From contig OW818699.1 in the NCBI GenBank assembly GCA_942493385.1, positions 1,686,808 through 1,750,807 on the forward strand: a stretch of 64,000 nucleotides of DNA, given 5' to 3'. The translations under genes and the position numbers were made by a program. The DNA comes from an uncultured Bacteroidales bacterium (GTDB taxonomy: Bacteria; Bacteroidota; Bacteroidia; Bacteroidales; UBA1402). Under the pieces are notes generated by a model. That model worked only from the letters and a program-made list of their open reading frames with translations. It made no database searches and was not told the origin of the DNA. Positions 2,172 through 30,164 of this stretch are shown one piece after another (within the stretch, counting starts at the first letter, position 1; each line of letters starts with the position of its first letter).

Positions 2172-2175
2172 AGGA

Positions 2176-2209
2176 AAGCCCGGGCTGAAAAGTCCGGGCT
2201 TGCTTTTTT
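2176..2209. terminator. Bidirectional intrinsic terminator between convergent genes
   Basis: AAGCCCGG (2176-2183) and CCGGGCTT (2194-2201) form a perfect 8-bp stem with a 10-nt loop. It is followed by GCTTTTTT and preceded by an A-rich run. Confidence 0.6.
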
Positions 2210-2218
2210 AAGAGCGTT

Positions 2219-4300: not shown

Positions 4301-4371
4301 GTTGGTATGGTATCAGGTATAAAGTACAATAACCCTTAGACCTACAGCGATCAAATAGGTTTAAAAGTTGT

Positions 4372-6315
4372 CTATTTGTTGAATAAGCCCGAAAATCCCA
4401 CCTTGTCGGTTCCGAAATAAAATCCGGGATGAGGCGGCTGATTGTACCCAGCATTTTCTGTCGCTACGCCGATGCGGTAAATGGGATCCTGCATGAACGT
4501 GGTGATGCCGTGCTCCGTCGTTTTGTCGGTCATATAGATTCGGATTTCGCGTCCATCCTCGGTAGGCCATATGACTTCTTCACGCCAGTCTCCAAAAATA
4601 TCAGCCGACAAGCAGGGCGTAGCCTTGGTTCCATTGCACCAGCTGATACCTTTTCCTTTGCCGTTAAAAAGAAGGCTCGTGCCGTTGCCAGTCCATTTGT
4701 AGATGTAAATTTTATCCAGCAATTCACGGGTCAGGTCGCCGTCCCACCAGATAGCCATGTTATAAGGGGGAGTGACTTTGGACAGAAGTTTGCCTTTGGC
4801 GGAATAAAGTCCGTTGGTGCCTGAAGACCAAATTTCAAGCCCACGGCTTTCTGGATCGATGTCTGCACAAAGAGCACGACCAACGTCTTGTGTAGAGGGG
4901 TAACCCCAAATCAACTTGCCAGTTGCGGCATTTCGAAGGGATGAACCATTGGGACTGGGTGCATATTCGTGGCATTGCCAGACTTCGAGCCCAGGTTTGT
5001 CAGGATCGATATCCGTCAGGTGCATGGCATCGCCATGGCCCCAACCGGTGCTGTACAATCCAGTTCCGTCATCGTCTATGGCGCACGCCCCGTAAATGAT
5101 TTCATCCTTTCCGTCGTGATCTACGTCCCCGATACGAATGTTGTGGTTGCCCTGATTGGAATAAGCGATGTATTTTTGGTTGTTGGCGTGGGTGTCGAAT
5201 GTCCAGATCTTGGTCATTTTTCCGTTTCTGAAATTCCAGGCTTGTACCACGGACTTGCCGTTGTACCCTCTGCCTACAATGTACGAGGGGCGTTTTCCAT
5301 CCAAATAGGCTACGGCAGAAAGCTGCCTGTCCATGCGGTTTCCGTAATCGTCACCCCATTCAATCATATTGCCTCGGGGTATATAATCTACCCGGTCGAG
5401 TTCCTTGCCGGTAGTACCTTCTATCACAGAAATGAATTCGGGACCACTCAGGATTTTTCCATACGTACGGAGGCTGGCATCCTTGATGACATAGTCAACC
5501 ACACCGTCCATATTGAAATCGCCAATTTTCTTACCGTCGCCGAAAATGGTGCCCTCCGATGTTTTGCAGATCACTTCAGCCTTGCCATCTCCGTCGAAAT
5601 CAAAGACCATGAACGAAAAATACTGGGCGCCTTCACGGACGTTCTTACCAATGTCTATTTGCCAGAGCCTTTTTCCATCCAATTTATAAGCTTCCAAATG
5701 GTTCGTTCCTCCTGAAATTCCAGCTTGTGAACAGGCAAAATTTCCGATTTGGCGTTTTACAATAATTTCATATTCTCCGTCACCGTCCAAATCGCCCACG
5801 GAAGCATCGTTCGGCATGTATGCTCGGGTGGTATCCCAATCGATGGGTGGCAGCTTGATGGAAAGGTAGGGTACCGTTGCCCGTTCTGGCGTGAGCATGT
5901 AGGACACCGCTTTTTTTCGAGATTTGCTCTCCACCAGGATGTATTCCTGAGTGATGGTCGTGTCTACGGACTTGTCGACAAAATAGGTGGCTGTTTTCAA
6001 AGGCTTGTCGTTCAAACGAACTTCCTTTAATTTGGTCACACCTGGGACATGACTTTTACGATACAGGTCGAAACTCACTTTCTTTGAGTCTTCCACCAAT
6101 TTGCGCCAACTCACTGCCACATAACCTTTTCCCTGATGAATGGCAACCAATCCTCGACCCAATTTCTCGAGTTGAAGATTGTTGTAGTTCGGACCGATAG
6201 GGGCTTCGGCAGTGCTCTTCTCTTTTGCCTTTTTTTTGCTACTAGCCGACGGGCAAGTTAGTGAAAAAGCAATAATCCATAAAAATAGGAGTGTTTTGTT
6301 CATAACGATACACAT
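4372..6315 (-). CDS. Rhamnogalacturonan lyase, PL11-like (paralogue)
   Basis: 647-aa ORF with the same loop set (GDLDGDGEYEIIV, DFDGDGKAEVI, GDVDHDGKDEII) and collinear with the neighbouring gene. The true start may be the ATG at 6303 (MNKTLLFLWIIAF...). Confidence 0.7.
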   Translation of the reverse strand: MCIVMNKTLLFLWIIAFSLTCPSASSKKKAKEKSTAEAPIGPNYNNLQLEKLGRGLVAIHQGKGYVAVSWRKLVEDSKKVSFDLYRKSHVPGVTKLKEVRLNDKPLKTATYFVDKSVDTTITQEYILVESKSRKKAVSYMLTPERATVPYLSIKLPPIDWDTTRAYMPNDASVGDLDGDGEYEIIVKRQIGNFACSQAGISGGTNHLEAYKLDGKRLWQIDIGKNVREGAQYFSFMVFDFDGDGKAEVICKTSEGTIFGDGKKIGDFNMDGVVDYVIKDASLRTYGKILSGPEFISVIEGTTGKELDRVDYIPRGNMIEWGDDYGNRMDRQLSAVAYLDGKRPSYIVGRGYNGKSVVQAWNFRNGKMTKIWTFDTHANNQKYIAYSNQGNHNIRIGDVDHDGKDEIIYGACAIDDDGTGLYSTGWGHGDAMHLTDIDPDKPGLEVWQCHEYAPSPNGSSLRNAATGKLIWGYPSTQDVGRALCADIDPESRGLEIWSSGTNGLYSAKGKLLSKVTPPYNMAIWWDGDLTRELLDKIYIYKWTGNGTSLLFNGKGKGISWCNGTKATPCLSADIFGDWREEVIWPTEDGREIRIYMTDKTTEHGITTFMQDPIYRIGVATENAGYNQPPHPGFYFGTDKVGFSGLFNK

Positions 6316-18597: not shown

Positions 18598-18635
18598 AAA
18601 AAAAAGAGCTTGTATTAATAATGCAGGCTCTTTTT
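18598..18635. terminator. Bidirectional intrinsic terminator (BCCP gene / gldL)
   Basis: AAAAAGAGC...GCTCTTTTT with additional imperfect inner pairing (TTGTATTA/TAATGCAG). An A-run lies on one side and a T-run on the other. Confidence 0.55.
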
Positions 18636-18654: not shown

Positions 18655-19488
18655 TTATTCTTTCTTCATCATTCCTATCATATTCTTATAATTCTTGTTC
18701 AGGGTCGAGAGGTTACTGTTGAGTTCTTTCATTTGGTCGCGGTATTTCTTAGTTTCGACAGCCGATTCGGACATATCCTTGAGATATTCTTCCGCACCCT
18801 GTACCTGAACCCGATAAATGGAATTCAACGTATTCAAATTTTTGTTGAGCGATTCCAGCTCCATCTGATATTTTTTGGACTCTTCCTCAATCGAAGTCAG
18901 CGAACTGGCAATGCTTTGATATTTGAAGACCGTCTTGGATGTAACTCGCAGGATGGATGATTCATAAGCTTTGGCCAGTCGTTCTAGCGATTCATCGGCA
19001 ATTTCGATGGTTTTCATGTATTTGGTCGAAGCCGCAAAGACATCGCCCATCGTATTCATGTGTTCAGCCGTGTCACCAAGCTTTCGCAGGCCATCTCCGA
19101 AGCGAAGCAATAAATCGGGCGTAATGTCACCATTCATCAACATCTCGTCAAATTTGGCCAGCGCCAGGGATCCATTGCCATCATCCACCAGCTTGCTGTT
19201 CACCCGACGTGGTACAATTTCCTCCTCTTCATCATCAGCACTCAGGATTACGTTTGGATAAACCAAAGGCGGATGTTCATCATCCTGACTTTCAAAAGCG
19301 TAAAAGAAGAAAATGATGGCTTCCGTCACCAAGCCGGCAGTTAGCATGTAATCCGCTCCTGCCCAATGCTCCAATTTGAATAGGGCACCTAATACAACGA
19401 CAGATGCGCCAAAACCATACAGTTTTGTCATGGCAGCCTTAAAGCCCCTGGTCTGCGTCAATCGTTGTATTTGTGCATCTAAGCCCAT
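18655..19488 (-). CDS. gldL: GldL/PorL-like motor protein
   Basis: KLYGFGASVVVLGALFKLEHW and LTAGLVTEAIIFFFYAFE are the two N-terminal TM helices characteristic of GldL. A cytoplasmic coiled-coil-like tail follows. Confidence 0.85.
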   Translation of the reverse strand: MGLDAQIQRLTQTRGFKAAMTKLYGFGASVVVLGALFKLEHWAGADYMLTAGLVTEAIIFFFYAFESQDDEHPPLVYPNVILSADDEEEEIVPRRVNSKLVDDGNGSLALAKFDEMLMNGDITPDLLLRFGDGLRKLGDTAEHMNTMGDVFAASTKYMKTIEIADESLERLAKAYESSILRVTSKTVFKYQSIASSLTSIEEESKKYQMELESLNKNLNTLNSIYRVQVQGAEEYLKDMSESAVETKKYRDQMKELNSNLSTLNKNYKNMIGMMKKE

Positions 19489-19520
19489 AGATCAAATTTT
19501 ATTGTAAAGATAATGCAATT

Positions 19521-21134
19521 TTACTTTATAGTAATGAAGAATGGTGGAAGATTCCGCTTATCATTTCCAGGTCCATTGACAATGATTTCTTCAAATAGTA
19601 GCACTTGTCCTCGATTCGTTCTCCGAATCTCCTGTATCATTTCATCCGTCAGATTATCGTTGGGTGAATCATAATTGTAGGTATTGAAACCACGATCCAT
19701 CGTCAACCTGAAACTTACGACCTGAAAAACGTAATTAAAATCAAAATCCACAGGCATCATCGGTACGATTTTTCCTGCCGAAAGGATATTTTCACGAGTA
19801 ACAAAGCCATCTTTTCTTCCGGAAATGGTAGGAGTCGGATCCGGTAGTTTCTTGATACGAAAAGTTTGCGTGCCTATCAACTTCAAACCATCATTCGACT
19901 TGATGGAAACCGATACGACCGCTTCTTTTGCTGTTGGTGGCACTATACAAATCCATCCGCTACTCTTAGGGTCCTGCTTGATAGTGCCGACAGATATGGT
20001 CGGAGAAAGGTTCTCCATCGGAATTCCAGTGATGGAAACGGACAGTGGATTTTCCACCCCAGCATAAAGTACGTTCATATTGGTGGGAGAAACCGTCACA
20101 ACAGGAGGTGCTACAAAATACTCCCCTTTGAAATGATAGGTCCGTTCACGTCCGGAAGCCGTAGGTACACTTACAAATCCAGCGTATTTTTGCATTCCTA
20201 AAGCAGTAGCTGGAAATTTGATATTTAATTTACCCTTATCCCTTGCTACGAGCGTAGCCTGGCCTTTTTGATCGACCGTCATGCTGTCCACTCCTTTCAT
20301 CAGGTATACGCTTGGACTTGGGGTGTGGCTGGTGTCATAAGCAGCCACAATCACTTCCGCTTCAAAATCATCACCCGTAAACAAATAATTAGTTTTTGGC
20401 AGCACCTTCGCTTCAATCCGGTCGTACTTGAAATCCTCGGCGATGCTTTCCCTAAGAAGTCCATTAACCACTTCCAATTCCGCATTGTTTACTTCCGAAA
20501 TCAATTTGTTCAGAATCGGAATATCGGCTGCCAGCGGAATATCATAGAAGTAATGGTGTTCCCAGCTTTGCAACTTGCCAAAAGCATCTTTGTATTTGTC
20601 CTTCGTGTCAAGACCCAATTGAATATCCTTCCTATTCGACGGATTGATCAGCTTCAAAATCTTTTCCCGATATGCACTTATCTTGTTTTTGAGTTCTCTT
20701 GCCTTACCCTTGGAGCCACTTTCCAAAGGTCCGATCATAATTTGCGTTGGTATCGTATAGTTATCCTTTTTCCGCAAATCTCTAATGCTCATTTTGCGGG
20801 CAGAATCCAAGGGTACCTTCTCTGTGACTGCAATTAATTCGTCTCGCATATTTGCGATGTAACTCACCATCTCGGTCGAAAGCTTCATGGCCACTTTTGC
20901 CTTATCCCAGAATGGACCGACCTCAATTTGGTTCATGGTGAACTCCTTCTGGAATTCTTCCACTGTCATTTTACGTTTATCCGGAAAACTTTCATTGGTT
21001 GAAAGCACGGTGTCATTCACCGTCGAGTAACCCTCCAGCACCTCTTTCGAAACATTCAGGGCCAGCATTGCCGTCAGCACGAGGTACATCATGCCAATGA
21101 GCTTTTGCCTGGGTGATTCTTTTTGGTGGGCCAT
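19521..21134 (-). CDS. gldM: GldM/PorM-like motor/periplasmic shaft protein
   Basis: The N-terminus SPRQKLIGMMYLVLTAMLALNVSKEVLEGY is the GldM signature TM region. Length is 537 aa. The GldM_C-like end reads ...LLFEEIIVNGPGNDKRNLPPFFITIK. Confidence 0.85.
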   Translation of the reverse strand: MAHQKESPRQKLIGMMYLVLTAMLALNVSKEVLEGYSTVNDTVLSTNESFPDKRKMTVEEFQKEFTMNQIEVGPFWDKAKVAMKLSTEMVSYIANMRDELIAVTEKVPLDSARKMSIRDLRKKDNYTIPTQIMIGPLESGSKGKARELKNKISAYREKILKLINPSNRKDIQLGLDTKDKYKDAFGKLQSWEHHYFYDIPLAADIPILNKLISEVNNAELEVVNGLLRESIAEDFKYDRIEAKVLPKTNYLFTGDDFEAEVIVAAYDTSHTPSPSVYLMKGVDSMTVDQKGQATLVARDKGKLNIKFPATALGMQKYAGFVSVPTASGRERTYHFKGEYFVAPPVVTVSPTNMNVLYAGVENPLSVSITGIPMENLSPTISVGTIKQDPKSSGWICIVPPTAKEAVVSVSIKSNDGLKLIGTQTFRIKKLPDPTPTISGRKDGFVTRENILSAGKIVPMMPVDFDFNYVFQVVSFRLTMDRGFNTYNYDSPNDNLTDEMIQEIRRTNRGQVLLFEEIIVNGPGNDKRNLPPFFITIK

Positions 21135-21218
21135 ACTTGATTACTTAATAAATAGGTCCAAGTCGGTTGTGTTTTTGAACATAAATTGTACCTTGATCGT
21201 TATCGTTTGTATGTATTG

Positions 21219-21226
21219 CAAAAGTA
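21219..21226 (-). promoter_or_regulatory. -7 box TACTTTTG upstream of gldM
   Basis: The minus-strand sequence matches TAnnTTTG, 85 nt upstream of the gldM ATG. No convincing -33 element was seen. Confidence 0.25.
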
Positions 21227-21325
21227 TTCGATGTTTTGCATATTTCCTAATGCGGCACATAATTCTCAAATTATCAGAAAAGAAGAATCCCAGCCAATTT
21301 CAGGCGCTATTTGGAGCATAATTTG

Positions 21326-21793
21326 TTATTGTAACCTATAATTCAAAGTTACTGCATAGGTGCCCGGGTGTAACTGCGAAAAATCAGAAATGAAAACATT
21401 CTGAGTAAGGATGACTGTTTTATTGCTTGCATACCATATACCTGTAATTATTGATTGATAATAGGTAGCGACGGTAACTAACCCTGTGGTGGAGCCTGCC
21501 CAATTACCACTAGGCTGTGCTGCCTGAACGGTATAGGTCATGCCAGGTGGGACAGAGTTGGATAAAATATCGATGTTTCCAACAATACCATCGCCTAAAA
21601 ATGGCCATGAATATTTGACAGATTGTGACGTGTAAGCAACTATTGGGTTAGCTGGAGTAGCTCCTGCTGTTGATGTTTGAAGCGTATAAGCGTTGGGACT
21701 CAATGTCAAAGGGGTTAAGGAAATCCTGCTTTGTGCCCAAGTACTACCACCCAACAAGGTAATAAACAATAGAAAAAAACATCTTTTATTCAT
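21326..21793 (-). CDS. Small secreted pilin-like protein (post-usher position)
   Basis: Signal peptide ending TWAQ. The mature N-terminus has alternating hydrophobics (RISLTPLTL). The C-terminus HPGTYAVTLNYRLQ resembles the GxY...Y-x-Q end of chaperone-usher/SCPU-type subunits. Confidence 0.45.
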   Translation of the reverse strand: MNKRCFFLLFITLLGGSTWAQSRISLTPLTLSPNAYTLQTSTAGATPANPIVAYTSQSVKYSWPFLGDGIVGNIDILSNSVPPGMTYTVQAAQPSGNWAGSTTGLVTVATYYQSIITGIWYASNKTVILTQNVFISDFSQLHPGTYAVTLNYRLQ

Positions 21794-21799
21794 AATCGG

Positions 21800-24424
21800 T
21801 CACTTTTTAATTAGATTATTCTGGAATTGAATTTGTCTTGCTTTCTTTTGAATGACGACATCAATTTTTTCGTGTTTCCCGGAAGTCAAATCAATGGTGA
21901 AATTACTATTTAAAAGTTTATAACCCAAAGGTATTCCATTAGGATATATTTTTATTTGCCATTTGTCTGGTCGTAAGTCATCAAAACGGAACGTACCTTC
22001 CTTGTTAGTATAAATTCGGTAAATATCCTTGCCGTTGCTTGCTTCCACAATGAGCTTTTCAATGGTTTCCTTGACTGGAATGTAGCCCTTTTGATTGGCA
22101 CGTTCATCTTCTTGAACCATTATTCGTCCTGAAATACTGCCCGAAGATGTTAAGGCACATTCAAACAACGTCACTTTGCTGGGTTCTACAAGAATCTTGA
22201 ATGGGCCTGGCGTTTCCGTTATCGTATTCAACCCCATGGAGGAAGCATCGATGTTCATCAGGTACTCTCCTACAGGAATTGCTGGAAACTTGAAATTGCC
22301 ATCTTTATCGGTAATGCAAATATTTCCGTTCAGATTCAACAAAAGCCCACCAACCTTTTCCACTCCATGATTGATGATCTTGCCGCTCACACTCCCAATA
22401 TTTTTCTTTTTAGCTATGGGCATGTTCAAATTGTGAACATAGCGCAATTGAACGTTGTATTCTTTTTTGTCAAGGGTGTTTTTAACTAGGTTGTAGTTGG
22501 CTGTCAGGTTTATTTCGTTGTTGTCGTTAATTCGTCCGAAAAGGTTCATCGAGAACAAACTTCTGTCTGAGGTATAGTAACGCCACTCATAATTACTGTT
22601 GTATTGCAGTGATAACGATAGGCGGTCCTTCATATTGGCAATAAATGAACCACCATAATAAAACTGATCAAAACCTGTCACATTTTTTTGCCCACCCTGA
22701 TAGGTGGAGAATGCACTGGCTGAAAAACTTTTATTGAATATGTAGAACATGGTAAAAGTACTGTTGTAGAACAACGACTCATCCACTACTATTCCGGGTA
22801 GATGATTTTGCATTTTTCCAACATCGGCAATCAGTGCCAGGTTGAACGACTTTAATTTGCTTTGAAGGGATATTCTACCACTTGTTTTGTCGTAATCAAA
22901 CAAAGGTGTTGGTGATTGGTCTTCTAAGCTAACCATATTGCCTGCCAAGGATAAGGTATTTTGCTGTGAAATTCTATAACTGGCAGTCATATTGATGTTT
23001 TTGCTGTGGGGCATGTTGGCATACAACGTATCCAATGCCATATTGGTGCTGTTTACGTCGTAATTGACCGAAAGTGAAAACTTCTTCAACTGAATGGCGG
23101 ACCCGACATTCATACGAAGGCTGTTGGTAACGAATCCAGGAAAATTGGGTTCTGCAAACAGGTATACCAAATGCGTGCTGAATTTGGGGATATTGAGATT
23201 TATGGTTGCCTTGTAAGCTTTTGTTAATTTTGAAGTGGCTTGTCCCATTGCCAGTTCTGCTTCCGTGCTGATAATGGAGAAAAGATTGTTGTGTGCAGAA
23301 ATCGTATACAATTGCGTGCGATTGTTCAATGTATCCGATTTCGTTAGGAATCCGGCCGACAATCCGTTCCTGGGGTCGAAATTGAACGATGAATAGGCCG
23401 CTGCCACTTGTTTGATTAGTGGATAATAACGTGGTACATTGTAGTAGGTCCCAATGGTCCATTTGTTCAAACGATACCGCAGTTCAAGCCCACGTCCGTT
23501 TCTGGAGGACTCTGTCAATTCACTTAATCCGAAATTATAGTCTCCTACAGCTGTAAAAAATTTTGAGGTACGAAATTTGAGATAATACTCATCATTCAAG
23601 CCAAATAATGGATTACCCGTTCTATCGGGACCGCGCAGGTGAAAATCAACGTTGGTATCCCCTTTTTTCCCAATCGCACCTGTACCCTGAATGTCGTACA
23701 TGCTACTTATCATTTGATTGCCCAACCGATTGCTGGCTGCAAAAATTCCAGATATTTTGATAGGAAAGCGTTCGTATTTGTCAAACTTGACCGCTTCAGA
23801 TGGAAATATGTCGTACGAAGAATACACTGAAGATTCTGTCTCCGGCTTGTCAACTACTTGCGCTATCAAAATGACCGATTGTTGCGTATGACCGTCAACT
23901 TTTTTTGCCGTTTTCGAATGAAAAGTTGTTACAATACCAGAATCCTTTGGAATGGAGAATTCTTCAATCTTACTTTCGGATCCCCTGAGTGTAGTCGTCT
24001 TTATTTTTACATCCAAATTGGAGAAATTCTGAATGAGATAACTTATGTTCACCTCATCACCTGAAAATATATACGAAGGAGATTTCAATTTTGTAATTGA
24101 AATCTCATATTTTGGCCTTACTTGAATGGGTATGTCAATTTTTCCGAACGGAATGTGACCAGGCAACTCCAACACTTCAACAGACAGATTAAAGTCACCG
24201 GCACGGATACTCTGTGATATTTGTATACCGATAACTTTTTTTAGACTGGAATTCTTTTCGATCTTGATGGATGAATAATCCGCAATCAACTTGCCGTTCA
24301 CTTCGTTGTTGCTAAACTTGATTTGAGCTTCTTTATCTTCGTTCGTAGGATTGTTGATCACTACAAGCATGTTGATGGTAGCGCCCGGTTCAACTTCTTT
24401 TTTTTGTGGTGAAAGTACCTTCAA
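21800..24424 (-). CDS. Outer-membrane beta-barrel protein with periplasmic beta-sandwich domains (usher-like); 5' end requires a frameshift to reach the ATG at 24501
   Basis: The track ORF starts at a TTG. The frame stays open 37 more codons upstream and encodes ...NRFNCFFLIVLRSSALA. Two N-terminal Ig/CARDB-like repeats cover about aa 1-215. A central ~470 aa has an amphipathic beta-strand pattern (LRYRLNKWTIGTYYN, SLSLQYNSNYEWRYY). Two C-terminal CarboxypepD_reg-like domains follow (GSVSGKIINHG...DKDGNFKF and GSISGRIMVQ...NKEGTFRFDDL). Confidence 0.5.
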   Translation of the reverse strand: MKVLSPQKKEVEPGATINMLVVINNPTNEDKEAQIKFSNNEVNGKLIADYSSIKIEKNSSLKKVIGIQISQSIRAGDFNLSVEVLELPGHIPFGKIDIPIQVRPKYEISITKLKSPSYIFSGDEVNISYLIQNFSNLDVKIKTTTLRGSESKIEEFSIPKDSGIVTTFHSKTAKKVDGHTQQSVILIAQVVDKPETESSVYSSYDIFPSEAVKFDKYERFPIKISGIFAASNRLGNQMISSMYDIQGTGAIGKKGDTNVDFHLRGPDRTGNPLFGLNDEYYLKFRTSKFFTAVGDYNFGLSELTESSRNGRGLELRYRLNKWTIGTYYNVPRYYPLIKQVAAAYSSFNFDPRNGLSAGFLTKSDTLNNRTQLYTISAHNNLFSIISTEAELAMGQATSKLTKAYKATINLNIPKFSTHLVYLFAEPNFPGFVTNSLRMNVGSAIQLKKFSLSVNYDVNSTNMALDTLYANMPHSKNINMTASYRISQQNTLSLAGNMVSLEDQSPTPLFDYDKTSGRISLQSKLKSFNLALIADVGKMQNHLPGIVVDESLFYNSTFTMFYIFNKSFSASAFSTYQGGQKNVTGFDQFYYGGSFIANMKDRLSLSLQYNSNYEWRYYTSDRSLFSMNLFGRINDNNEINLTANYNLVKNTLDKKEYNVQLRYVHNLNMPIAKKKNIGSVSGKIINHGVEKVGGLLLNLNGNICITDKDGNFKFPAIPVGEYLMNIDASSMGLNTITETPGPFKILVEPSKVTLFECALTSSGSISGRIMVQEDERANQKGYIPVKETIEKLIVEASNGKDIYRIYTNKEGTFRFDDLRPDKWQIKIYPNGIPLGYKLLNSNFTIDLTSGKHEKIDVVIQKKARQIQFQNNLIKK

Positions 24425-24470
24425 CTCCAGTTTACTATCAATAGCCAGAGCGGAAGAACGTAATACTATT

Positions 24471-24479
24471 AAAAAAAAA
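24471..24479 (-). repeat. T9 homopolymer (minus strand), either a -1 slippery site or an indel-prone tract at the usher-like gene 5' end
   Basis: The minus strand reads ATG TTT CGA ATC GTT TCA ATT GTT TTT TTT TAA. A -1 shift, or one extra T, joins MFRIVSIVFF to LIVLRSSALAIDSK... in the main frame. Confidence 0.6.
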
Positions 24480-24532
24480 CAATTGAAACGATTCGAAACA
24501 TCTATCAGGTTTTTGACAATCTGCGCCTCACC

Positions 24533-25333
24533 CTAAAAATAAAGTGTATATTCCAATCCAAATACATCATCATCCGCACCAGCGGCAACGATCATGGCCG
24601 TATATGTTTTTTTGGATGGAACACCCTCTAAGTCCAACTTGAATCGGGCTGAAGTGGTTGGATATAAACCACGTTTGGGTGCTGTAATTTTTTTAACCAA
24701 AATGCCGTCTTGATCATATAGTTCAATGCTGACTTCAGGAGCGATGTAGTGTTGACCTTCGTTCAACAAGTCGATGGCTAGGTAAAGTTTCTTGCCTTCT
24801 TCGGCTTTTATAAGGGTAGGATCCATGAACTTGAGTTTTCCTGTACCCCTATTGTTGATTTCATTGACTACTTGAACCGCATATCTTGTTGCAGTCCGAA
24901 TACTTAAGTCACCCTTCTGATTCGGGTCAATAGGATCAACACCTTCAACCATGATGACGCTCCAGTAAGAGCCAATGATGGAGTCGCCTTTTGGAACTGT
25001 TATTTCATATTCAACATTACGTGATTCCTTGCTTTTTAAGACGACAGTTCTTGGACTATATTGTATCCAACTGGCATTGGATCGTTTTTGTCCACCAGGT
25101 TCATCGTAAAAGGTTTGTTCTTGAAAGTTGAATAGGAAATCTGTTTGGTAGATTCTAACTTCCTGATCGGCGGCATCATTATTTTGAATCTTAATTTGTC
25201 CCTTGACAACATCACCGGGATTGGTATTGTATACTTGCTTTAAACTTCCAATAACTTCGACGGATGCCATTAAACCTACGGGAAGTAAAAATAAGTAGCA
25301 AATAAACAGGATAAGCTTTTTGTTTAGCATCAT
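24533..25333 (-). CDS. Periplasmic two-beta-sandwich protein (chaperone-like, PapD/DUF916-like pattern)
   Basis: Signal peptide (LLPVGLMA). The segments VVKGQIKIQNNDAADQEVRIY and YSPRTVVLKSKESRNVEYEITVP...SYWSVIMVEG resemble the Ig-like chaperone pattern. It lies immediately upstream of the barrel gene. The fold is not verified. Confidence 0.4.
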   Translation of the reverse strand: MMLNKKLILFICYLFLLPVGLMASVEVIGSLKQVYNTNPGDVVKGQIKIQNNDAADQEVRIYQTDFLFNFQEQTFYDEPGGQKRSNASWIQYSPRTVVLKSKESRNVEYEITVPKGDSIIGSYWSVIMVEGVDPIDPNQKGDLSIRTATRYAVQVVNEINNRGTGKLKFMDPTLIKAEEGKKLYLAIDLLNEGQHYIAPEVSIELYDQDGILVKKITAPKRGLYPTTSARFKLDLEGVPSKKTYTAMIVAAGADDDVFGLEYTLYF

Positions 25334-25393
25334 GGTTCTGATTTAAAGCATTAAGAATAAGTTAAAATGAGCTGGAAAACGTATCAAACACCG

Positions 25394-25401
25394 CAAATGT
25401 A
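25394..25401 (-). promoter_or_regulatory. -7 box TACATTTG upstream of the chaperone-like gene
   Basis: The minus-strand sequence matches TAnnTTTG, 61 nt upstream of the ATG at 25333. Confidence 0.3.
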
Positions 25402-25515
25402 TTCGTAGTTTCTTAAAAAACCTAATTTAACTTATTAAAATATACTTTTAGAACTAAAAAAAAAACTACTAAACCCTTTTGAACAGCTATTTTCAGTTTG
25501 TAAAGCGTAGAAATC

Positions 25516-26094
25516 CTATTGAACTGCCGTCAATGTAAAAGTGACAACAATTTGTGCACCAGTGGTGGCTCGTAGTGTTCCATACGTGGCTGGATTGACA
25601 TCCAACGCATAACTGAACTTCAATGGGTATCCGTCTGCTGCTCCCTTACCTGAATAACAGGATGCGATATTGGTAATAATCGGCCTGTCTGTACCATCCA
25701 AAGTTGTCGGAGCAATAAAGACTCCTGTTTCACCTGCAAAATTGGAGTTTGGTTGTAAAACCGAAAGTTCAAGATGGGTGCCTGGAGGTACGGTTCCTGC
25801 TGTAATCTTTGCCGAAAGTGTTCGAGTCATTGAAGAGGAGATCACAGAAGACATCAAGAGTCTGGCTGTAGAGTCAGATGCGCTTACTTCAACGGAAAGC
25901 CCGGCATCTTGCTGGTTTAATTGCAAATTGATGAGGTCGGCACTTGTTTTTACCAACGAGACTTCCGTAATTCCCAGCGTAATGGTCGTAGACGAAGAAT
26001 TGGTTGCGCTCGTAGAACCCTCCTGGGCGAAAACTCTATAACTGTTTAACAACAGTGCGCAAAATATTCCAATGATCGATAGCTTTTTATACAT
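25516..26094 (-). CDS. Secreted pilin-like paralogue P1
   Basis: Signal peptide ...RVFAQ. Family motifs are RLLMSS, TRTLSAKI, SCYSGKGAADGY and the C-terminal IVVTFTLTAVQ. Its ATG overlaps the upstream gene's stop (ATGTATAA). Confidence 0.5.
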   Translation of the reverse strand: MYKKLSIIGIFCALLLNSYRVFAQEGSTSATNSSSTTITLGITEVSLVKTSADLINLQLNQQDAGLSVEVSASDSTARLLMSSVISSSMTRTLSAKITAGTVPPGTHLELSVLQPNSNFAGETGVFIAPTTLDGTDRPIITNIASCYSGKGAADGYPLKFSYALDVNPATYGTLRATTGAQIVVTFTLTAVQ

Positions 26095-26650
26095 TGGTAT
26101 CGGATGCTACAGTGGAAATGGTATAAGTAACAATAATAGTTGCACTTCTAAGGATTGGCGCGTTTGGGATGGCCTTGTAAACGTATCGGATAACATAACC
26201 GTCATCCTCCGTTTTTCCCGACCAACAGGTTCCAATTCCTTCTGCAAGAGTTACTTCCGTTTCGTTCGAAAGTAGTTTTTCGCCCGTAAGAGAACCTCGA
26301 TTTTCTGGATAAACAAAATTACCGTTAGGTTCCTTCAATTCTACATGAAGTGTAGTGCCAACCAATGCCTCCGAAATTTTGGCGGTGATGGCTCTCGTTT
26401 CGCCGTTATTTACAAGTGACGAAATCCTTAATCGAGACTTGTCATTCTCGGCAGCTTGTTGAATCGCATCACCAGCCTCAACAGCACCCGCCAATATCAA
26501 CTTGACGGGTGGCCCTGCTACAGCCAGTAAAGCAGACCCAGCTACTTGGAGGTCAATGGATTGTGTAACAACCCTTGTGTCCTGAGCATAGACTGATAAG
26601 GGCATCAGCAATAAGGAAAGACCTATAAAATATACAAATACCCTTTTCAT
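26087..26650 (-). CDS. Secreted pilin-like paralogue P2
   Basis: Start taken at the ATG at 26650 (MKRVFVYFIGLSLLLMPLSVYAQ); the track begins at a TTG at 26671. Motifs are RLRISS, TRAITAKI, TCWSGKTEDDGY and IIVTYTIS. Confidence 0.5.
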   Translation of the reverse strand: MKRVFVYFIGLSLLLMPLSVYAQDTRVVTQSIDLQVAGSALLAVAGPPVKLILAGAVEAGDAIQQAAENDKSRLRISSLVNNGETRAITAKISEALVGTTLHVELKEPNGNFVYPENRGSLTGEKLLSNETEVTLAEGIGTCWSGKTEDDGYVIRYVYKAIPNAPILRSATIIVTYTISTVASDTNV

Positions 26651-26727
26651 AGTCGATATCATATCATACAATGTCTCTCAAACCTTAAAAGGTTCTAAAG
26701 ACATTTGAAAAAAAATTAACAACGAAA

Positions 26728-27324
26728 TTATACCGCTGCTGTGATCGTGTATGTAATGACTATGTTTTGACTTTGCATGAAGGTCGCATCGGCTTTTTTG
26801 GCATATCTATATGTTACAGTATAACCATCATTGTCACCCATGCCCGACCAGCAAGTTGTTATGTCAGAAACTATCGTCTTGCTCGAACCATCTGTCAATT
26901 CTTGTTCTGTAGCAGGTGTACCACCATTGGCTACTGCTGGAAGAAAACTTTCTGGTTTGGTGAGTGAAACGAAAAATTGGGTACCTGTATTTGTGATTGC
27001 AGGGGAAATGCTTGCAGTAATAGTCCTCGTTTTTCCACTCTCAACCAGGGAAGATATCCTAAGTCTCGTGTCCGAATTGCTGGCCTGATCCATGACGGCC
27101 GCACCAGCTTGTGTTGCTCCGGACAAGGACATCGAAACAGCTGTGGAAGTACCAGCATTAATGTTTGTATTGAAAACAGCCAACAATGCGGAGCCATTTA
27201 CTTGAAGGGCGATGTTCTGTGAGACATCAGCGCCGGAATTCCCTGGGTTTTGTGCCGTCGCGATCATAGGCAAAGTAGTGCCGATAAGTAAAGCGATGCA
27301 TTTTAATAACGATGTTTTTTTCAT
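26728..27324 (-). CDS. Secreted pilin-like paralogue P3
   Basis: 198 aa with signal peptide ...IATAQ. Motifs are RLRISS, TRTITASI, TCWSGMGDNDGY and NIVITYTITAAV. Confidence 0.5.
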   Translation of the reverse strand: MKKTSLLKCIALLIGTTLPMIATAQNPGNSGADVSQNIALQVNGSALLAVFNTNINAGTSTAVSMSLSGATQAGAAVMDQASNSDTRLRISSLVESGKTRTITASISPAITNTGTQFFVSLTKPESFLPAVANGGTPATEQELTDGSSKTIVSDITTCWSGMGDNDGYTVTYRYAKKADATFMQSQNIVITYTITAAV

Positions 27325-27409
27325 TTTATTGAATGTTTTAGCTTTTGGATGTTTCTCAGTTTATATCAACGACTTTGTAATGAGCAAAAGATAAGCCGAG
27401 ACTTCCAAA

Positions 27410-28006
27410 TTATACTTCGGCAGTAATTGTATAGGTGATGACGATGTTCTGACTTTGTAGGAAAGTAGCATCAACTTTCTTGGCATAACGGTAAGTGACA
27501 ACGTAACCATCCGTTGCACCTGTACCTGACCAGCAGGTTGTAATGGCAGAAACGACAGTCTTGGTTGTTCCGTCAGTCAGTTCTTGTTCAGCTGCAGCAG
27601 TTCCACCATTGGCAGCAACAGGTTGAAAGGTTCCGGGTCTTGTCAGTGCAACAAAAAACTGTGTTCCAGAAGTTGTAATTGCTGGAGCGATGGCTGCAGT
27701 AATGGTTCTGGTCTTGCCGCTTTCAACAAGTGACGAAATTCTAAGTCTGGTGTCAGCGTTTGTGGTTTGATCCAAAATGGCCGCACCAGCTTGTGTGGCA
27801 CCGGTCAATGACATGGAAACAGCCGTAGAAGTTCCTGCATCGGCATTGGTGTTTACAACCGCCAATAGAGCAGACCCGTCTACTTTAAGTGTAATATCCT
27901 GTGTAACAGTTGCAGCAGATCCGCCGGGATTTTGAGCGGAAGCGAAGAGGGGCATGGCTAAACAAGTCAATAATGCGATGCTTTTGACCAATGAAGACTT
28001 TTTCAT
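27410..28006 (-). CDS. Secreted pilin-like paralogue P4 (candidate major subunit)
   Basis: 198 aa with 146/198 identical positions to P3 by ungapped hand alignment. It follows a 312-bp regulatory gap that has its own -7 box. Confidence 0.5.
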   Translation of the reverse strand: MKKSSLVKSIALLTCLAMPLFASAQNPGGSAATVTQDITLKVDGSALLAVVNTNADAGTSTAVSMSLTGATQAGAAILDQTTNADTRLRISSLVESGKTRTITAAIAPAITTSGTQFFVALTRPGTFQPVAANGGTAAAEQELTDGTTKTVVSAITTCWSGTGATDGYVVTYRYAKKVDATFLQSQNIVITYTITAEV

Positions 28007-28057
28007 AATTTTTGTGTATTAAAATGATTGAAATTTGAGTTGCTATTTTATGGTTTA

Positions 28058-28065
28058 CAAAGATA
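28058..28065 (-). promoter_or_regulatory. -7 box TATCTTTG upstream of P4
   Basis: The minus-strand sequence matches TAnnTTTG, 52 nt upstream of the ATG at 28006. Confidence 0.35.
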
Positions 28066-28079
28066 GGTCAGAAAAACAG

Positions 28080-28106
28080 TTATGTACACTAGGTTTCCGT
28101 ACATAA
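28080..28106. promoter_or_regulatory. 8-bp perfect inverted repeat TTATGTAC-N11-GTACATAA
   Basis: Read directly. It overlaps the expected -33 region of the P4 promoter. On the minus strand it is followed by ACTGTTTTTC, so an operator or a weak terminator are both possible. Confidence 0.3.
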
Positions 28107-28318
28107 AAGATACGAAGTACCATTCTTTAAGGATACAAAGAGGAAACATGTTCCTAAGCATATCACTAGGCAAACCTAAATCATTTTTAGCAATGACAAC
28201 CATGGTATTTGCCTGATTATACTTCAGGATTACAGATATTTAGTATCAGTAAAATCCTTAGAAAAGACTTCCTCTTTTAAGAAGTTAAAAGTAGTCAAAA
28301 ATATTAACAGTCAGATAA

Positions 28319-28891
28319 TCAATTGCTTGTTATCGTGTATGTGACTGTTATCGGTGCATTGGCTATCGCTCTAAGTAGAGCATAGTTCGCTGGATCAACA
28401 CTCCAGTAGTAGGTGAGGTTGAACCCATTTGTTGACGAAGATCCGGTATACCCACTGCCAATGCTGTTTATAAGCGTTGTGTTGATATTCTTGAGCAAAG
28501 TGATCTGGCCCGATGGTGTTCCGCGGTTACCAGAACCTGAAGAAGAGCTAGACGCAGTCAGTTTGAGGAGCGTACCGGCAGGTACAAATCCGCTAGTGAC
28601 GGATGCCATGATCCTTCGAGTTTGGTTGGCTGGAGCAATGGATGTTAATTGCAAGTAAGATGCATTATTTGTTTTTGGAGAAGTTGTTTCCCCTGCAACT
28701 GAGGCCAATAAGTTCATACTGATTGTAGTCAAAGGATTAATTCGGATAAGGCTCACATCATTGATGGTTATAGTGAACACATTAGTAGTATAGACCTGAG
28801 CAGTTGCTTTTCCGTACAAGACCAGTGAAAGAACGATAAACAAAAGATACTTCCACCTATAGGTTGAATTTCGAATGGTGGTGTTATTCAT
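28319..28891 (-). CDS. Secreted pilin-like paralogue P5 (divergent, Cys-less motif)
   Basis: Signal peptide ...GKATAQ. Motifs are TRRIMASV, GSGYTGSSSTNGF and PITVTYTITSN. Its ATG overlaps the P6 stop (ATGAATAA). Confidence 0.45.
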   Translation of the reverse strand: MNNTTIRNSTYRWKYLLFIVLSLVLYGKATAQVYTTNVFTITINDVSLIRINPLTTISMNLLASVAGETTSPKTNNASYLQLTSIAPANQTRRIMASVTSGFVPAGTLLKLTASSSSSGSGNRGTPSGQITLLKNINTTLINSIGSGYTGSSSTNGFNLTYYWSVDPANYALLRAIANAPITVTYTITSN

Positions 28892-29453
28892 CTGAATTGA
28901 TTGTATAAATTACACGAATACGTAAATTGGCAAGTAGTTCGCTTTGAATGTAATCCGGATCATAGCCCGGTTTGAGTTCCCATGAAAAAGTTAGCAAGTG
29001 CCCTTTGTTATCTCCTTGGCCAGTGTAACAAGATCCAATATCTGTGATGATTGCCTGAGGTGCCGTAGATAAATAGATGGGAATGGCCGGTTTCCCAACT
29101 TGCCCGTAACCGGCACCGATATCTGGTCCGACTTTCAGCTTAATGGCGATTTCAGCAGGTAAGTCGCCTGAAGCAAGGCTTGCACAAATCGTATTGGTTG
29201 AATTGCTTACGATGACAGAGGAATAATTAATCCAAATCGTATCCACGGTCGATGGCGCTAGTTTCCGATCTTTGCCTTCGCCAGTGAAAAGAGAGAACTT
29301 GAGTTCGGAAGATCCCATGCTCAACTTGGCGCTTGGTGGTATGGCCATTTGGACCGGCAATTTGCCAGTGTTGTCGTTCTCTTGAGCTTGCAGGCGGAAG
29401 TCTGCAACAATCAAAAGCAATGTGAACATAAATACGTTGTACGTCATTCTCAT
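28884..29453 (-). CDS. Secreted pilin-like paralogue P6 (divergent)
   Basis: Start taken at the ATG at 29453 (MRMTYNVFMFTLLLIVADFRLQAQ), preceded by AAGGAGG-caag; the track begins at a TTG at 29474. Motifs are SCYTGQGDNKGH and RIRVIYTINSDE. Confidence 0.45.
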   Translation of the reverse strand: MRMTYNVFMFTLLLIVADFRLQAQENDNTGKLPVQMAIPPSAKLSMGSSELKFSLFTGEGKDRKLAPSTVDTIWINYSSVIVSNSTNTICASLASGDLPAEIAIKLKVGPDIGAGYGQVGKPAIPIYLSTAPQAIITDIGSCYTGQGDNKGHLLTFSWELKPGYDPDYIQSELLANLRIRVIYTINSDE

Positions 29454-29463
29454 CTTGCCTCCT

Positions 29464-30096
29464 TTAATATACAATGCCTTGCTTCATAGCATACTTGACC
29501 AGTTGGGCTAAGTTGTCAAACCCCATTTTGTCAAAGATGTTCTGTTTGTGTGTTCCAACCGTCTTAATGCTGATATAAAGAGATTCGGAAACTTCACGTA
29601 CAGATCTACCCTCAGCCAAAAGCCCTAGTATTTGTGTTTCCCGTTTTGTCAAAGTGGCAGATAAATTGGTGTTCCTTCCAAGGTATTCATCGATGATAAT
29701 GCTTTCAACATCCATACCCACTGCCTTTTTTCCATTATTTATTTGCCTGATGCCGTTCAATAAGTGTTCGAAAGTGCAGTTCTTCAAGTAATATCCATGA
29801 ACACCGGCTGTCAACGCTCCTTTAATATGTATTTTTTCAGAATGTGATGTTAATGCAATTATTTTGCAATTTGGGTGCTCCATCAGGATCATCTGAGTTG
29901 TTTCAATGCCCTTCAACCGAGGTAGACATATATCCATGATTACCATATTCGGTCGCTTTTCTTTTACCCTTGAAAGAACTTCAACCTGATCCTCTGCTTC
30001 TCCGATGGCTTCAATATCGTCGGTTTCGCTGAATCTGTAGGCAAGAAGTTCCCTGAACAACTTATTATCATCTGCAAGTAAAACAGATATCTTCAT
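29464..30096 (-). CDS. Response regulator, NarL/FixJ (LuxR-type HTH) family, no adjacent kinase
   Basis: Receiver domain (LLADDN..., MVIMDICLP, KIIALTSH) plus a C-terminal LuxR HTH (LTKRETQILGLLAEGRSVREVSESLYISIKTVGTHKQNIF). Confidence 0.85.
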   Translation of the reverse strand: MKISVLLADDNKLFRELLAYRFSETDDIEAIGEAEDQVEVLSRVKEKRPNMVIMDICLPRLKGIETTQMILMEHPNCKIIALTSHSEKIHIKGALTAGVHGYYLKNCTFEHLLNGIRQINNGKKAVGMDVESIIIDEYLGRNTNLSATLTKRETQILGLLAEGRSVREVSESLYISIKTVGTHKQNIFDKMGFDNLAQLVKYAMKQGIVY

Positions 30097-30156: not shown

Positions 30157-30164
30157 CAAAAATA
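30157..30164 (-). promoter_or_regulatory. -7 box TATTTTTG upstream of the response-regulator gene
   Basis: The minus-strand sequence matches TAnnTTTG, 61 nt upstream of the ATG at 30096. Confidence 0.3.

Follow-up and report, generated by a model that had tools for sequence, protein, structure and literature searches.

A fimbria-like locus joining an usher-like outer membrane protein to a diverged GldM-GldL motor pair in an uncultured Bacteroidales bacterium

Twelve minus-strand open reading frames (ORFs) form a single locus within the 64,000-nucleotide stretch of Bacteroidales DNA analyzed here (the window), and the gene calls of the original prediction hold, with all twelve at matching coordinates. 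The genes and associated features are listed below, beginning with the first gene of the locus.

29464..30096, minus strand: NarL/LuxR-type response regulator, locus gene 1 (Response_reg 5e-23, GerE 4e-17)
28884..29453 (ORF reaches 29474 from a TTG), minus strand: small secreted subunit sm1, likely start ATG 29453 after AGGAGG; from paralogue alignment
28319..28891, minus strand: small secreted subunit sm2, 190 aa; from paralogue alignment, orthogroup kept in relatives
27410..28006, minus strand: small secreted subunit sm3, 198 aa, candidate major subunit; AlphaFold2 model
26728..27324, minus strand: small secreted subunit sm4, 198 aa, 74% identical to sm3
26087..26671, minus strand: small secreted subunit sm5, 194 aa from a TTG; from paralogue alignment
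25516..26094, minus strand: small secreted subunit sm6, 192 aa; from paralogue alignment and relatives
24533..25333, minus strand: 266-aa periplasmic protein, candidate chaperone, distant WxLIP (DUF916/DUF3324) relative
21800..24501, minus strand: usher-like outer membrane protein, ~900 aa if intact; 874-aa ORF at 21800-24424 owing to a frameshift
24471..24479, minus strand: run of nine Ts (T9) within the signal-peptide coding region of the usher-like gene; site of the frameshift
21326..21793, minus strand: divergent subunit-like secreted protein, 155 aa, 3' of the usher-like gene; weak paralogy to the small proteins
21135..21325, minus strand: 191-nt spacer 5' of gldM, with a TACTTTTG (Bacteroidota -7-like) motif at 21219-21226
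19521..21134, minus strand: GldM paralogue, 537 aa, cluster-linked clade; four GldM Pfam domains, TIGR03517
18655..19488, minus strand: GldL paralogue, 277 aa, downstream of gldM, cluster-linked clade; GldL_N 2e-23
18598..18635, no strand: hairpin between convergent genes, flanked by A8 and T8; from sequence and fold energy

All of the gene junctions claimed beforehand were seen, namely 8-nt overlaps at 28884-28891 and 26087-26094, a 6-nt gap at 21794-21799, a separation of 32 nt between gldM and gldL (19489-19520), and a response regulator stop codon that sits within TAAAGGAGG and is followed by an ATG at 29453. The start of sm1 therefore most likely lies at 29453 and not at the TTG at 29474, and the true start of sm5 probably also lies later than its TTG. 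Tight packing describes these short junctions but not the locus as a whole, which has three wider gaps of 312 nt (28007-28318), 182 nt (25334-25515), and 191 nt (21135-21325), each containing a minus-strand TAnnTTTG motif; across the whole window the frequency of this motif is not above chance. The gap preceding gldM measures just 5 to 15 nt in relatives, so that a separate promoter for gldM at the TACTTTTG motif of the 191-nt spacer is only a possibility. A bidirectional terminator had been placed at 18598-18635 and is probable, as a hairpin with A8/T8 flanks exists there, but its fold is modest (-11.3 kcal/mol, z = -1.7) and a terminator scan did not pick it up. The same arrangement of genes recurs in dozens of independent contigs, far beyond chance.

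GldL and GldM (PorL and PorM) constitute the proton-driven motor of type IX secretion and gliding, outside which they are not normally known, and are canonically encoded in the order gldK-gldL-gldM-gldN. The identities proposed for the two genes at the end of the locus were borne out: the 537-aa protein has all four Pfam GldM domains, reaches 339 bits against TIGR03517 (cutoff, 180 bits), and has the N-terminal Arg-Gln motif (R9 and Q10, both invariant), while the 277-aa protein contains GldL_N, matches GldL in solved GldLM structures, and conserves the transmembrane motifs. Both are full-length, keep the core motor motifs, and match solved GldLM/PorLM complexes. Their divergence from the canonical motor is nonetheless considerable. 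The 537-aa GldM is 28% identical to PorM and to F. johnsoniae GldM, and the cluster-linked copies of GldM and of GldL each form a monophyletic clade of their own (30/30 neighbor-joining bootstraps in both cases), with identities of at least 41% within the GldM clade against a median of 33% to canonical copies. Conservation of the GldM transmembrane segment is equal in both clades (0.79-0.84) and all four periplasmic domains have diverged between them, as would be expected if an unchanged motor core acted on another target in the periplasm. Gene order is likewise distinct, gldM-gldL at this locus being the inverse of the canonical gldL-gldM: in the canonical loci sampled, gldL lies immediately upstream of gldM in 76 of the classifiable loci, and gldK and gldN flank the pair in 75 and 72 of all 79, whereas neither gldK nor gldN was found near cluster-linked copies in 1.13 Mb of such loci, where the neighbor is the usher-like module.

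The motor genes are syntenic with the module among relatives. A GldM of the same clade adjoins the cluster in 45 of the 46 informative loci, i.e., those with enough flank to judge GldM linkage; it directly follows the module in 40, and in five the gldM(-gldL) genes are divergently placed at the other end, where their continued linkage in spite of the move indicates selection for linkage. The common gene order is found in loci L001, L005-L008, and L088 onward, and linkage persists across usher identities of 34 to 85%. About half of the related loci possess GldM without GldL, making GldM the near-universal partner and a private GldL optional. Genes downstream of GldM in the GldM-only loci are unrelated housekeeping genes; GldL must thus be supplied from elsewhere, pointing to a further gldL(M) locus in the same genomes. 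Distantly related modules (the L002, L166, and L167 types and L004) operate without GldM, a point against the coupling proposed below. Taken across loci, the GldM/GldL paralogue clades are physically linked to the module almost always and to gldK/gldN never. We therefore give practically no credence to the reading that a fimbria-like cluster happens to lie beside housekeeping type IX secretion system (T9SS) motor genes, even though the 537-aa protein would be called PorM/GldM under the NCBIfam equivalog model: linkage that survives rearrangement, separate clades for both motor proteins, inverted gene order, and the lack of gldK/gldN exclude chance adjacency and support the claim of a motor distinct from the housekeeping one.

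The large protein encoded upstream of this motor had been described as an 874-aa outer membrane barrel with periplasmic beta-sandwich domains. Its AlphaFold2 model (pLDDT 87.7) agrees with this architecture, comprising two N-terminal beta-sandwiches (1-207), a barrel (217-672) of about 24-26 strands (26 strand segments in the model), and two C-terminal sandwiches (676-860); the ORF does read 874 aa, but it is truncated by a frameshift. The nine best PDB matches in Foldseek are all FimD (E 3.6e-15 to 2e-11), with an alignment spanning ~780 columns at 10% identity, and PapC (3e-10) and TonB-dependent transporters (1e-8 to 1e-7) also match. From the model, we confidently predict an outer membrane barrel with the domain order and fold of an usher. 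The expected profile matches did not materialize, as none of the locus products is hit by an Usher, PapD, or fimbrial model of Pfam or NCBIfam, and the module is thus better said to work like the chaperone-usher family than to be a member of it. Further departures from classical ushers are the lack of a plug domain inserted in the barrel sequence and the resemblance of the two N-terminal domains to the 266-aa chaperone-like protein itself (hhalign 75%, E 2.5e-5).

This barrel could alternatively be an energized gate or transporter that works as TonB-dependent transporters do, with GldM in the role of TonB, transport in either direction, and the small proteins serving as nonpolymerizing surface-exposed binding proteins or released factors. 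Among the structural matches, the outer membrane barrels ranking behind ushers are TonB-dependent transporters (E about 1e-8), the protein carries CarboxypepD_reg-like domains as do Bacteroidota SusC proteins, and, to our knowledge, every known 5:2 motor acts on an outer membrane or cell wall target. TonB-dependent machinery has also been listed among the protein export routes of bacteria (PMC9127263). We nevertheless find this explanation improbable: there is neither a Plug domain nor a TonB box in the usher-like protein, its CarboxypepD_reg-like domains are C-terminal and not N-terminal, usher matches are better than those to transporters by 7 orders of magnitude and cover the full length, and multiple paralogous subunits with a chaperone-like partner fit fiber assembly better. 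The likeness to TonB-ExbBD (and TolQR, MotAB, AglQRS, and ZorAB) is one of concept, an inner membrane ion-driven motor acting across the periplasm on an outer membrane barrel, but the motor at this locus is of the GldLM family and its barrel lies beside subunit and chaperone genes.

The gene for the 266-aa protein always lies directly upstream of the usher-like gene. Its product carries a signal peptide and is, by sequence, a distant WxLIP relative and candidate chaperone: all six members of its family match WxLIP_PGBD (best 1.3e-5) and one of the six matches WxLIP_HBD (4e-9), with the matches of most members falling below Pfam gathering thresholds. It is not PapD-like in sequence, and PapD_N/C profiles match no product. 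WxLIP is reportedly built of two perpendicular IgG-like domains, one of which, in an AlphaFold2 prediction, lends a strand to the partner WxL domain (PMC10599100). Completing a small partner in this way is the donor-strand principle of chaperones. Compared to the WxL/WxLIP (DUF916-DUF3324) clusters of Firmicutes, however, the 266-aa protein has no C-terminal membrane helix, the locus contains no WxL-domain proteins, and the host is diderm, with an outer membrane barrel and a motor.

Six paralogous subunits of ~190 aa, each with a signal peptide, and the divergent 155-aa protein make up the remaining secreted products. The 155-aa protein is 17% identical to the small proteins, with a C-terminal strand in common, and its gene, a position filled by a 160-170-aa gene in loci with inspected gene calls, stands where chaperone-usher operons have their tip or adaptor subunit. 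Orthologues of sm5 in L093, L099, L110, and L121 are 60-65% identical, and in L093 and L099 an sm1 orthologue sits with the divergently placed gldM-gldL. The AlphaFold2 model of sm3 (pLDDT 87.7) shows seven strands in a beta-sandwich, together with an N-terminal segment (residues 25-44) that is flexible yet conserved; sm3 has no sequence match in Pfam, NCBIfam, or the PDB, and the small proteins match none of the Pfam models at E<=0.1. Top Foldseek matches of the modeled subunit are SafA, CfaB, Hyper2/CanA cannulae, FimG, CS17, and CsuA/B, so the predicted pilin fold finds donor-strand subunits as its best matches, but at low statistical strength (E of at least 0.02, TM 0.3-0.4), and the model weakly suggests that the small subunits share this fold.

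As claimed, the small proteins are devoid of the T9SS C-terminal domain, with no Por_Secre_tail match even at E<=1. Two proteins with such a domain, where three had been announced, were found in the window, at 58403-60145 (E 1e-7) and at 18-2171 (E 4.6e-4, below Pfam's cutoff). Could the locus be an accessory branch of the type IX secretion/gliding apparatus, its small proteins being cargo or adhesins and not a donor-strand polymer? In that case the GldM paralogue would dock onto housekeeping GldL and perhaps also onto the GldK/N ring, with the usher-like barrel as a specialized translocon, anchor, or track element. Half of the loci have GldM alone, the conservation of its transmembrane segment matches that of canonical copies, so that housekeeping GldL is probably usable, and host genomes do contain T9SS cargo (58403-60145 in the window; neighbors of L004). 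Yet the small proteins have no sorting domain of this kind, the module is never accompanied by gldK, gldN, or other T9SS genes, some related modules have no GldM at all, and the order subunit-chaperone-usher-subunit together with the FimD-like fold points to a self-contained export route; we consider an accessory branch unlikely.

On balance, we lean toward a surface fiber or polymer of small beta-sandwich subunits whose assembly is coupled to a dedicated proton-driven GldM(-GldL) motor. Subunits would be exported by Sec, held by the WxLIP-like protein via strand complementation, and passed to the usher-like pore, where donor-strand exchange, with the conserved N-terminal segment and its alternating hydrophobic pattern as the donor strand, would polymerize them into a product emerging at the cell surface. 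A GldM dimer anchored in a GldL pentamer, either private or, where the locus has no gldL, housekeeping, would span the periplasm and, instead of a GldK/GldN ring, engage the periplasmic domains of the usher-like protein, a contact that we infer purely from linkage. We likewise infer the donor-strand polymerization and the motor's job, for which we prefer that proton flow gates or drives translocation through a barrel with no built-in plug; alternatively, the motor might rotate or retract the fiber. The tests run came out in favor of a fiber module with a GldLM-type motor, and literature searches found no published description of an usher-like module with a GldM-GldL motor, consistent with the original view that the combination matches no described system. 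The recurrence of an usher-like module with a diverged GldM-GldL in dozens of related genomes points to a new powered cell-envelope machine.

Such a machine would share with classical chaperone-usher pili (Fim, Pap, and the archaic Csu) a series of subunits, chaperone-like protein, large outer membrane protein, and subunit-like gene, an outer membrane protein whose large barrel lies between N-terminal domains in the periplasm and a C-terminal pair of beta-sandwiches, and subunits that are small beta-sandwiches, but its chaperone-like protein is WxLIP-like and its motor has no counterpart. Classical chaperone-usher assembly requires no energy input, leaving a motor without an obvious job there, which counts against the proposed coupling. 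Type V pili (FimA/Mfa1) are Bacteroidota fibers in which small beta-sandwich subunits exchange strands; their pilins are lipoprotein precursors matured by proteolysis, with no usher, chaperone, or motor. Phylum and, if our proposal is correct, strand exchange would thus be shared, whereas the subunits of this locus lack a lipobox and carry sites for signal peptidase I in which position +1 is Gln.

In this strain the usher-like gene is frameshifted, and the system may consequently be off or decaying. The T9 tract breaks the frame between signal peptide and mature protein, and adding a single T brings back ATG 24501 together with the signal peptide MFRIVSIVFFLIVLRSSALA/IDSK; a close relative, L088, 85% identical, has T10 and an intact frame, and NCBI annotates merely an 856-aa internal product. 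The tract reflects either an error of sequencing or a phase variant in the OFF state. That the system is inactive in this genome, through a pseudogenized or phase-OFF usher-like gene, is an improbable reading and one that concerns the state of the locus and not the type of system, given that homopolymer miscounts are a frequent assembly error, the other 874 codons are undamaged and share 81-87% identity with full-length relatives, and every other gene in the locus is intact. Expression in this strain may also depend on T9/T10 slippage. Locus expression is probably controlled by a linked NarL-type two-component system: the LuxR-type response regulator was correctly identified from its Response_reg and GerE domains, most related loci likewise begin with an orthologous regulator, and 16 of them include a linked HisKA_3 kinase.

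The twelve consecutive minus-strand open reading frames (ORFs) that the original prediction had placed at 18655-30096 were recovered exactly as described, together with the 8-nt overlaps at 28884-28891 and 26087-26094, the 6-nt gap at 21794-21799, the 32 nt separating gldM from gldL, and the stop codon of the response regulator (RR) gene lying inside TAAAGGAGG, immediately 5' of the ATG at 29453. Minor corrections concern spacing and termination. Short gaps and overlaps are indeed frequent, but the packing is not uniform, with spacers of 312, 182, and 191 nt, and the proposed terminator hairpin does occur at 18598-18635, between an A8 and a T8 run, as a modest fold (-11.3 kcal/mol, z = -1.7). 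Pfam assigns the RR to the NarL/LuxR type. Its gene is followed by those of six small secreted paralogues (sm1-sm6), a 266-aa periplasmic protein, an usher-like outer membrane protein, a seventh small protein (155 aa), GldM, and GldL, and the order subunit(s)-chaperone-usher-tip subunit that characterizes chaperone-usher operons was found both at this locus and in its relatives. The main genes and promoter-like motifs are as follows.

18655-19488, minus strand, gldL paralogue
19521-21134, minus strand, gldM paralogue
21800-24424, minus strand, usher-like gene, 874-aa ORF (21800-24501, ~900 aa, if the frame is intact)
24533-25333, minus strand, 266-aa WxLIP-like candidate chaperone
21219-21226, minus strand, TAnnTTTG motif (Bacteroidota -7-like) in long intergenic spacer
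25394-25401, minus strand, TAnnTTTG motif in long intergenic spacer
28058-28303, minus strand, TAnnTTTG motif in long intergenic spacer
30157-30164, minus strand, TAnnTTTG motif in long intergenic spacer

The presence of a minus-strand TAnnTTTG motif in each of the 312-, 182-, and 191-nt spacers hints at possible transcription units comprising RR-sm1-sm2, sm3-sm6, the 266-aa/usher-like/155-aa genes, and gldM-gldL, though across the whole window the motif is not enriched, its count being not above chance. A scan for sigma-70 promoters and terminators returned background level only.

The anticipated 874-aa outer membrane barrel stood in its architecture and not in its length. An AF2 model (pLDDT 87.7, 100-sequence alignment) shows two N-terminal sandwiches (residues 1-207), a barrel of 26 strand segments without an inserted plug domain (217-672), and two C-terminal sandwiches (676-860), but the ORF itself is cut short, its frame being broken at 24471-24479 by a T9 run (gene sense, within signal-peptide codons). 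With a single T added, the frame again takes in ATG 24501 and the signal peptide MFRIVSIVFFLIVLRSSALA/IDSK, in agreement with homologues of ~900 aa. In the related locus L088, where the usher-like protein is ~84-85% identical, the same tract is T10 and the gene is intact. Either the assembly has miscounted this homopolymer or the tract is an ON/OFF switch that works by strand slippage; that the locus is OFF or decaying in this strain through the frameshift strikes us as improbable.

When the model was compared with the PDB using Foldseek, ranks 1-9 were all FimD (~780 columns, E 3.6e-15 to 2e-11), followed by PapC (E 3e-10) and then TonB-dependent transporters (1e-8 to 1e-7). The modelled protein therefore has the usher fold, which in ushers comprises an N-terminal periplasmic domain, a 24-strand barrel, and two C-terminal Ig-like domains, and differs in having no plug domain inserted in the barrel. 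At the sequence level there was no match to Usher (PF00577) in Pfam at E<=1 or in NCBIfam, and a 100-sequence profile found no sequence match in the PDB. The transporter matches bear on a reading of the barrel as a TonB-like energised gate for proteins that do not polymerise; in contrast to TonB-dependent transporters (22-strand barrel), the usher-like protein has no Pfam match to the Plug domain, which the genuine SusC proteins of the window do match, and we regard such a gate as a poor candidate.

In an hhalign profile comparison, the two N-terminal periplasmic domains of the usher-like protein (residues 1-162) look homologous to the 266-aa protein (probability 75%, E 2.5e-5), so that a second copy of the chaperone-like module may be built into the pore. 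The 266-aa protein itself gave no PapD_N or PapD_C match in Pfam, and its family profile found nothing meaningful in the PDB. Its sequence comes nearest to the WxLIPs of Firmicutes: all six family members tested matched WxLIP_PGBD (DUF916) weakly (best 1.3e-5) and one of the six matched WxLIP_HBD (DUF3324; 4e-9), the window's own protein giving a weak E of 0.094 in the same Pfam comparison. Firmicute WxLIPs have 337-365 aa, consist of two perpendicular Ig-like domains, and are predicted to insert a strand into a small partner protein (PMC10599100). Given that the 266-aa protein is shorter and ends (...EYTLYF) directly after the family-aligned region, there is no room for the C-terminal membrane helix of a WxLIP, and the locus also differs from WxL/WxLIP clusters in having no WxL-domain partners, with no WxL-domain Pfam match among the small proteins.

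The six small proteins are clear paralogues, 20-74% identical to sm3, and the 155-aa protein is a distant relative; all have signal-peptidase-I-type signals (ending ...A/Q), and none matches Pfam or NCBIfam. In the AF2 model of the 198-aa sm3 (pLDDT 87.7, 83-sequence alignment), seven strands form a sandwich, and ahead of it lies an N-terminal stretch (residues 25-44) that is flexible yet conserved, with hydrophobic residues alternating along it. Foldseek matches to the PDB were weak (best E 0.02-0.17, none below 0.02), and the top ones were mostly donor-strand fibre subunits (SafA, CfaB, the Hyper2/CanA cannulae, FimG, CS17, and CsuA/B); the subunit-family profile found nothing meaningful in the PDB. 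Within the fibre proposal given below, donor-strand polymerisation of the small proteins has about an even chance of being correct. An hhalign comparison of the small proteins with the 266-aa protein showed no relationship (probability 10.6%).

The motor genes were correctly named in the original prediction. GldM contains all four Pfam domains (GldM_1st to GldM_4th) and scores 339 bits against the NCBIfam PorM/GldM equivalog TIGR03517, GldL contains GldL_N, and both match the solved GldLM and PorLM complexes. GldM retains the invariant Arg9-Gln10 pair near its N terminus, and GldL its transmembrane motifs. To our knowledge, GldLM/PorLM motors have so far been described solely in type IX secretion (T9SS) and gliding, which they power by acting on the GldK/N ring. 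For canonical comparison we used a sample of GTDB genomes scanned with the GldM alignment, where 79 canonical loci and one cluster-linked locus were among the matches listed, which nowhere set two loci of a single genome side by side; in these canonical loci (at least 79), gldL lies immediately upstream of gldM in almost every one, with gldK (FGE-sulfatase domain) before the pair and gldN after it. The present locus shares the GldL and GldM family domains with the T9SS core but has the order M-L, inverse to canonical K-L-M-N, and neither the 64-kb window nor the 86 usher-cluster loci examined (1.13 Mb total) contained a GldK or GldN homologue. Cluster-linked GldM (46 sequences) separates cleanly from canonical copies, and cluster-linked GldL (26 sequences) likewise forms its own bipartition against them, each in 30/30 neighbor-joining bootstraps; within GldM, the transmembrane segment shows the same degree of conservation in the two clades, whereas divergence affects all four periplasmic domains. 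Because the order is inverted, gldK and gldN are missing, and both proteins fall in clades of their own, the two motor proteins are not those of the T9SS core operon.

A rival reading makes the module an accessory part of the T9SS or of the gliding machinery. The window's genome does encode T9SS cargo, as seen in two sorting-domain proteins:

18-2171, T9SS sorting-domain protein (E 4.6e-4)
58403-60145, T9SS sorting-domain protein (E 1e-7)

Unlike these, none of the seven small proteins matches Por_Secre_tail at E<=1, as had been noted from the sequence. We consider an accessory T9SS branch unlikely.

The homologues of the 874-aa protein, none of which has a name, all come from MAGs of Bacteroidales or Bacteroidota, and their contexts repeat the order RR, small proteins, 263-aa protein, ~900-aa protein, ~165-aa protein, and GldM with or without GldL; the best 120 GldM matches (>=47% identity) and the list of usher homologues had 39 same-sized contigs in common. 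A metagenome scan with the usher alignment yielded 78 loci, and among scan loci and other retrieved loci, 46 were informative in having at least 3.3 kb of downstream flank. Cluster-type GldM lies directly downstream in 40 of these 46, followed by GldL in 20 and without any GldL in the other 20. Five further loci (L093, L099, L110, L121, and L143) have gldM(-gldL) at the opposite end of the cluster, divergent from the RR, and the linkage has therefore survived rearrangement. The predicted synteny thus holds at 45 of 46 informative loci, the sole exception being L161, a distant family member (25% identical). L004 had no GldM within reach, its downstream flank being too short for the census. Chance adjacency of the cluster and the motor genes is effectively refuted by this linkage together with the separate clades, the inverted order, and the lack of gldK and gldN. 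Within the fibre proposal given below, we consider it highly probable that GldM is functionally coupled to the usher-like module.

Where GldL is missing, the loci are the following.

GldM-only loci: L005, L006, L008, L111-L115, L123, L126-L137, L141, L144, L147, L150, L154

Downstream genes in GldM-only loci are unrelated housekeeping genes (nitroreductase, S51 peptidase, BamB-like), and GldL must there come from another locus; a 288-aa gene after GldM in some of them was considered as a divergent GldL and rejected, as it encodes a nitroreductase-ferredoxin. Since canonical gldL adjoins gldM in almost every sampled locus, it is very likely that GldM-only genomes, among them GCA_018653615.1, encode a canonical gldM in addition to the cluster-linked one, and the arrangement suggests an alternative GldM shaft sharing the housekeeping GldL stator.

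Relatives of the locus also differ in which parts are conserved. L088 is ~84-85% identical to the window in the usher-like protein, 91% in GldL, and 67% in GldM, and L089, another related locus, is 66%, 95%, and 89% identical, respectively, a mosaic which suggests that the locus has recombined or exchanged modules. The sm1 orthologue of L093 and L099 has moved together with gldM(-gldL), and a tie between sm1 and the motor is possible. In L001 (Bacteroidales MAG GCA_054813595.1), a complete CheA/MCP/CheW/CheR cluster, unusual in Bacteroidales, occupies positions 1-5122 and is divergent from the RR. It is absent from every other locus, so chemosensory control was rejected and the two probably adjoin by coincidence.

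In textbooks, chaperone-usher assembly stands as the example of fibre export without an energy source at the outer membrane. The locus resembles it in gene order and usher fold and differs in that its products match no Usher, PapD, or fimbrial sequence model. Conserved synteny, phylogeny, and fold evidence support the central interpretation of the original prediction; the composition of the locus, the modelled folds, the paralogy, and the conserved linkage are established. On balance we lean toward a surface fibre passing through the usher-like pore and coupled to a GldM(-GldL) motor. We propose that the WxLIP-like protein would hold Sec-exported subunits by complementing their fold with a strand, and that these would then pass to the usher-like pore and polymerise by donor-strand exchange into a surface fibre. 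A GldM dimer in a GldL pentamer would reach the periplasmic domains of the usher-like protein, replacing the GldK/N ring, so that proton-motive force could gate or drive translocation through a barrel without a built-in plug; alternatively, the motor output might be rotation or retraction of the fibre. The strongest form of this proposal, a new class of powered appendage in which a donor-strand fibre is extruded, spun, or reeled in through an usher-like pore by a GldLM-type rotary proton motor, is at present a long shot.

In the literature library searched, including for GldL/GldM together with usher, there was no account of a GldLM pair tied to an usher-like module. Within that scope, the earlier statement that the combination matches no described system stands. 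A distinct GldM(-GldL) clade sitting nearly always beside an usher-like barrel points to a motor family re-targeted to a second outer membrane machine, and the linkage suggests that an usher-type pore could couple to proton-motive force. Were the powered-appendage reading true, it would add a third GldLM output to T9SS secretion and SprB-based gliding, and provide the first energised relative of the chaperone-usher pathway. The cluster offers a system for asking how the GldM tip passes work to its outer membrane partner, a question that the T9SS poses too, with a far simpler partner set, one barrel versus the large GldK/GldN ring. From the GldM-only loci comes the further prospect of one GldL stator serving alternative GldM shafts.

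Beyond the GldM-linked loci, a profile search of 1.84 billion representatives (50% identity) retrieved 4,793 usher-like relatives at E<=1e-3, 1,161 of them at E<=1e-30, and the best 150 of the 4,793 were mostly full-length at ~900 aa. This large uncharacterised superfamily is paired with WxLIP-like proteins, a conceptual link between Gram-positive WxL clusters and a diderm fibre pathway. Its distant members lie in minimal modules that lack GldM and comprise one small protein, one protein of ~270 aa and one of 900-944 aa, and in some cases a second small protein:

Loci with distant family members, minimal modules without GldM: L002, L003, L157, L158, L161, L166-L168

Since distant members have this minimal form, the GldM-linked form is a derived subfamily, to which further subunit paralogues, a two-component system, and the motor have been added.

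The flanks of the locus in the window (2219-6315 and 32348-60145) form a rhamnogalacturonan-type polysaccharide utilisation region encoding two family-11 RG lyases, an alpha-L-rhamnosidase, a BT_1020-like beta-propeller protein, DUF6298 and DUF3826 proteins, and two SusC/SusD pairs.
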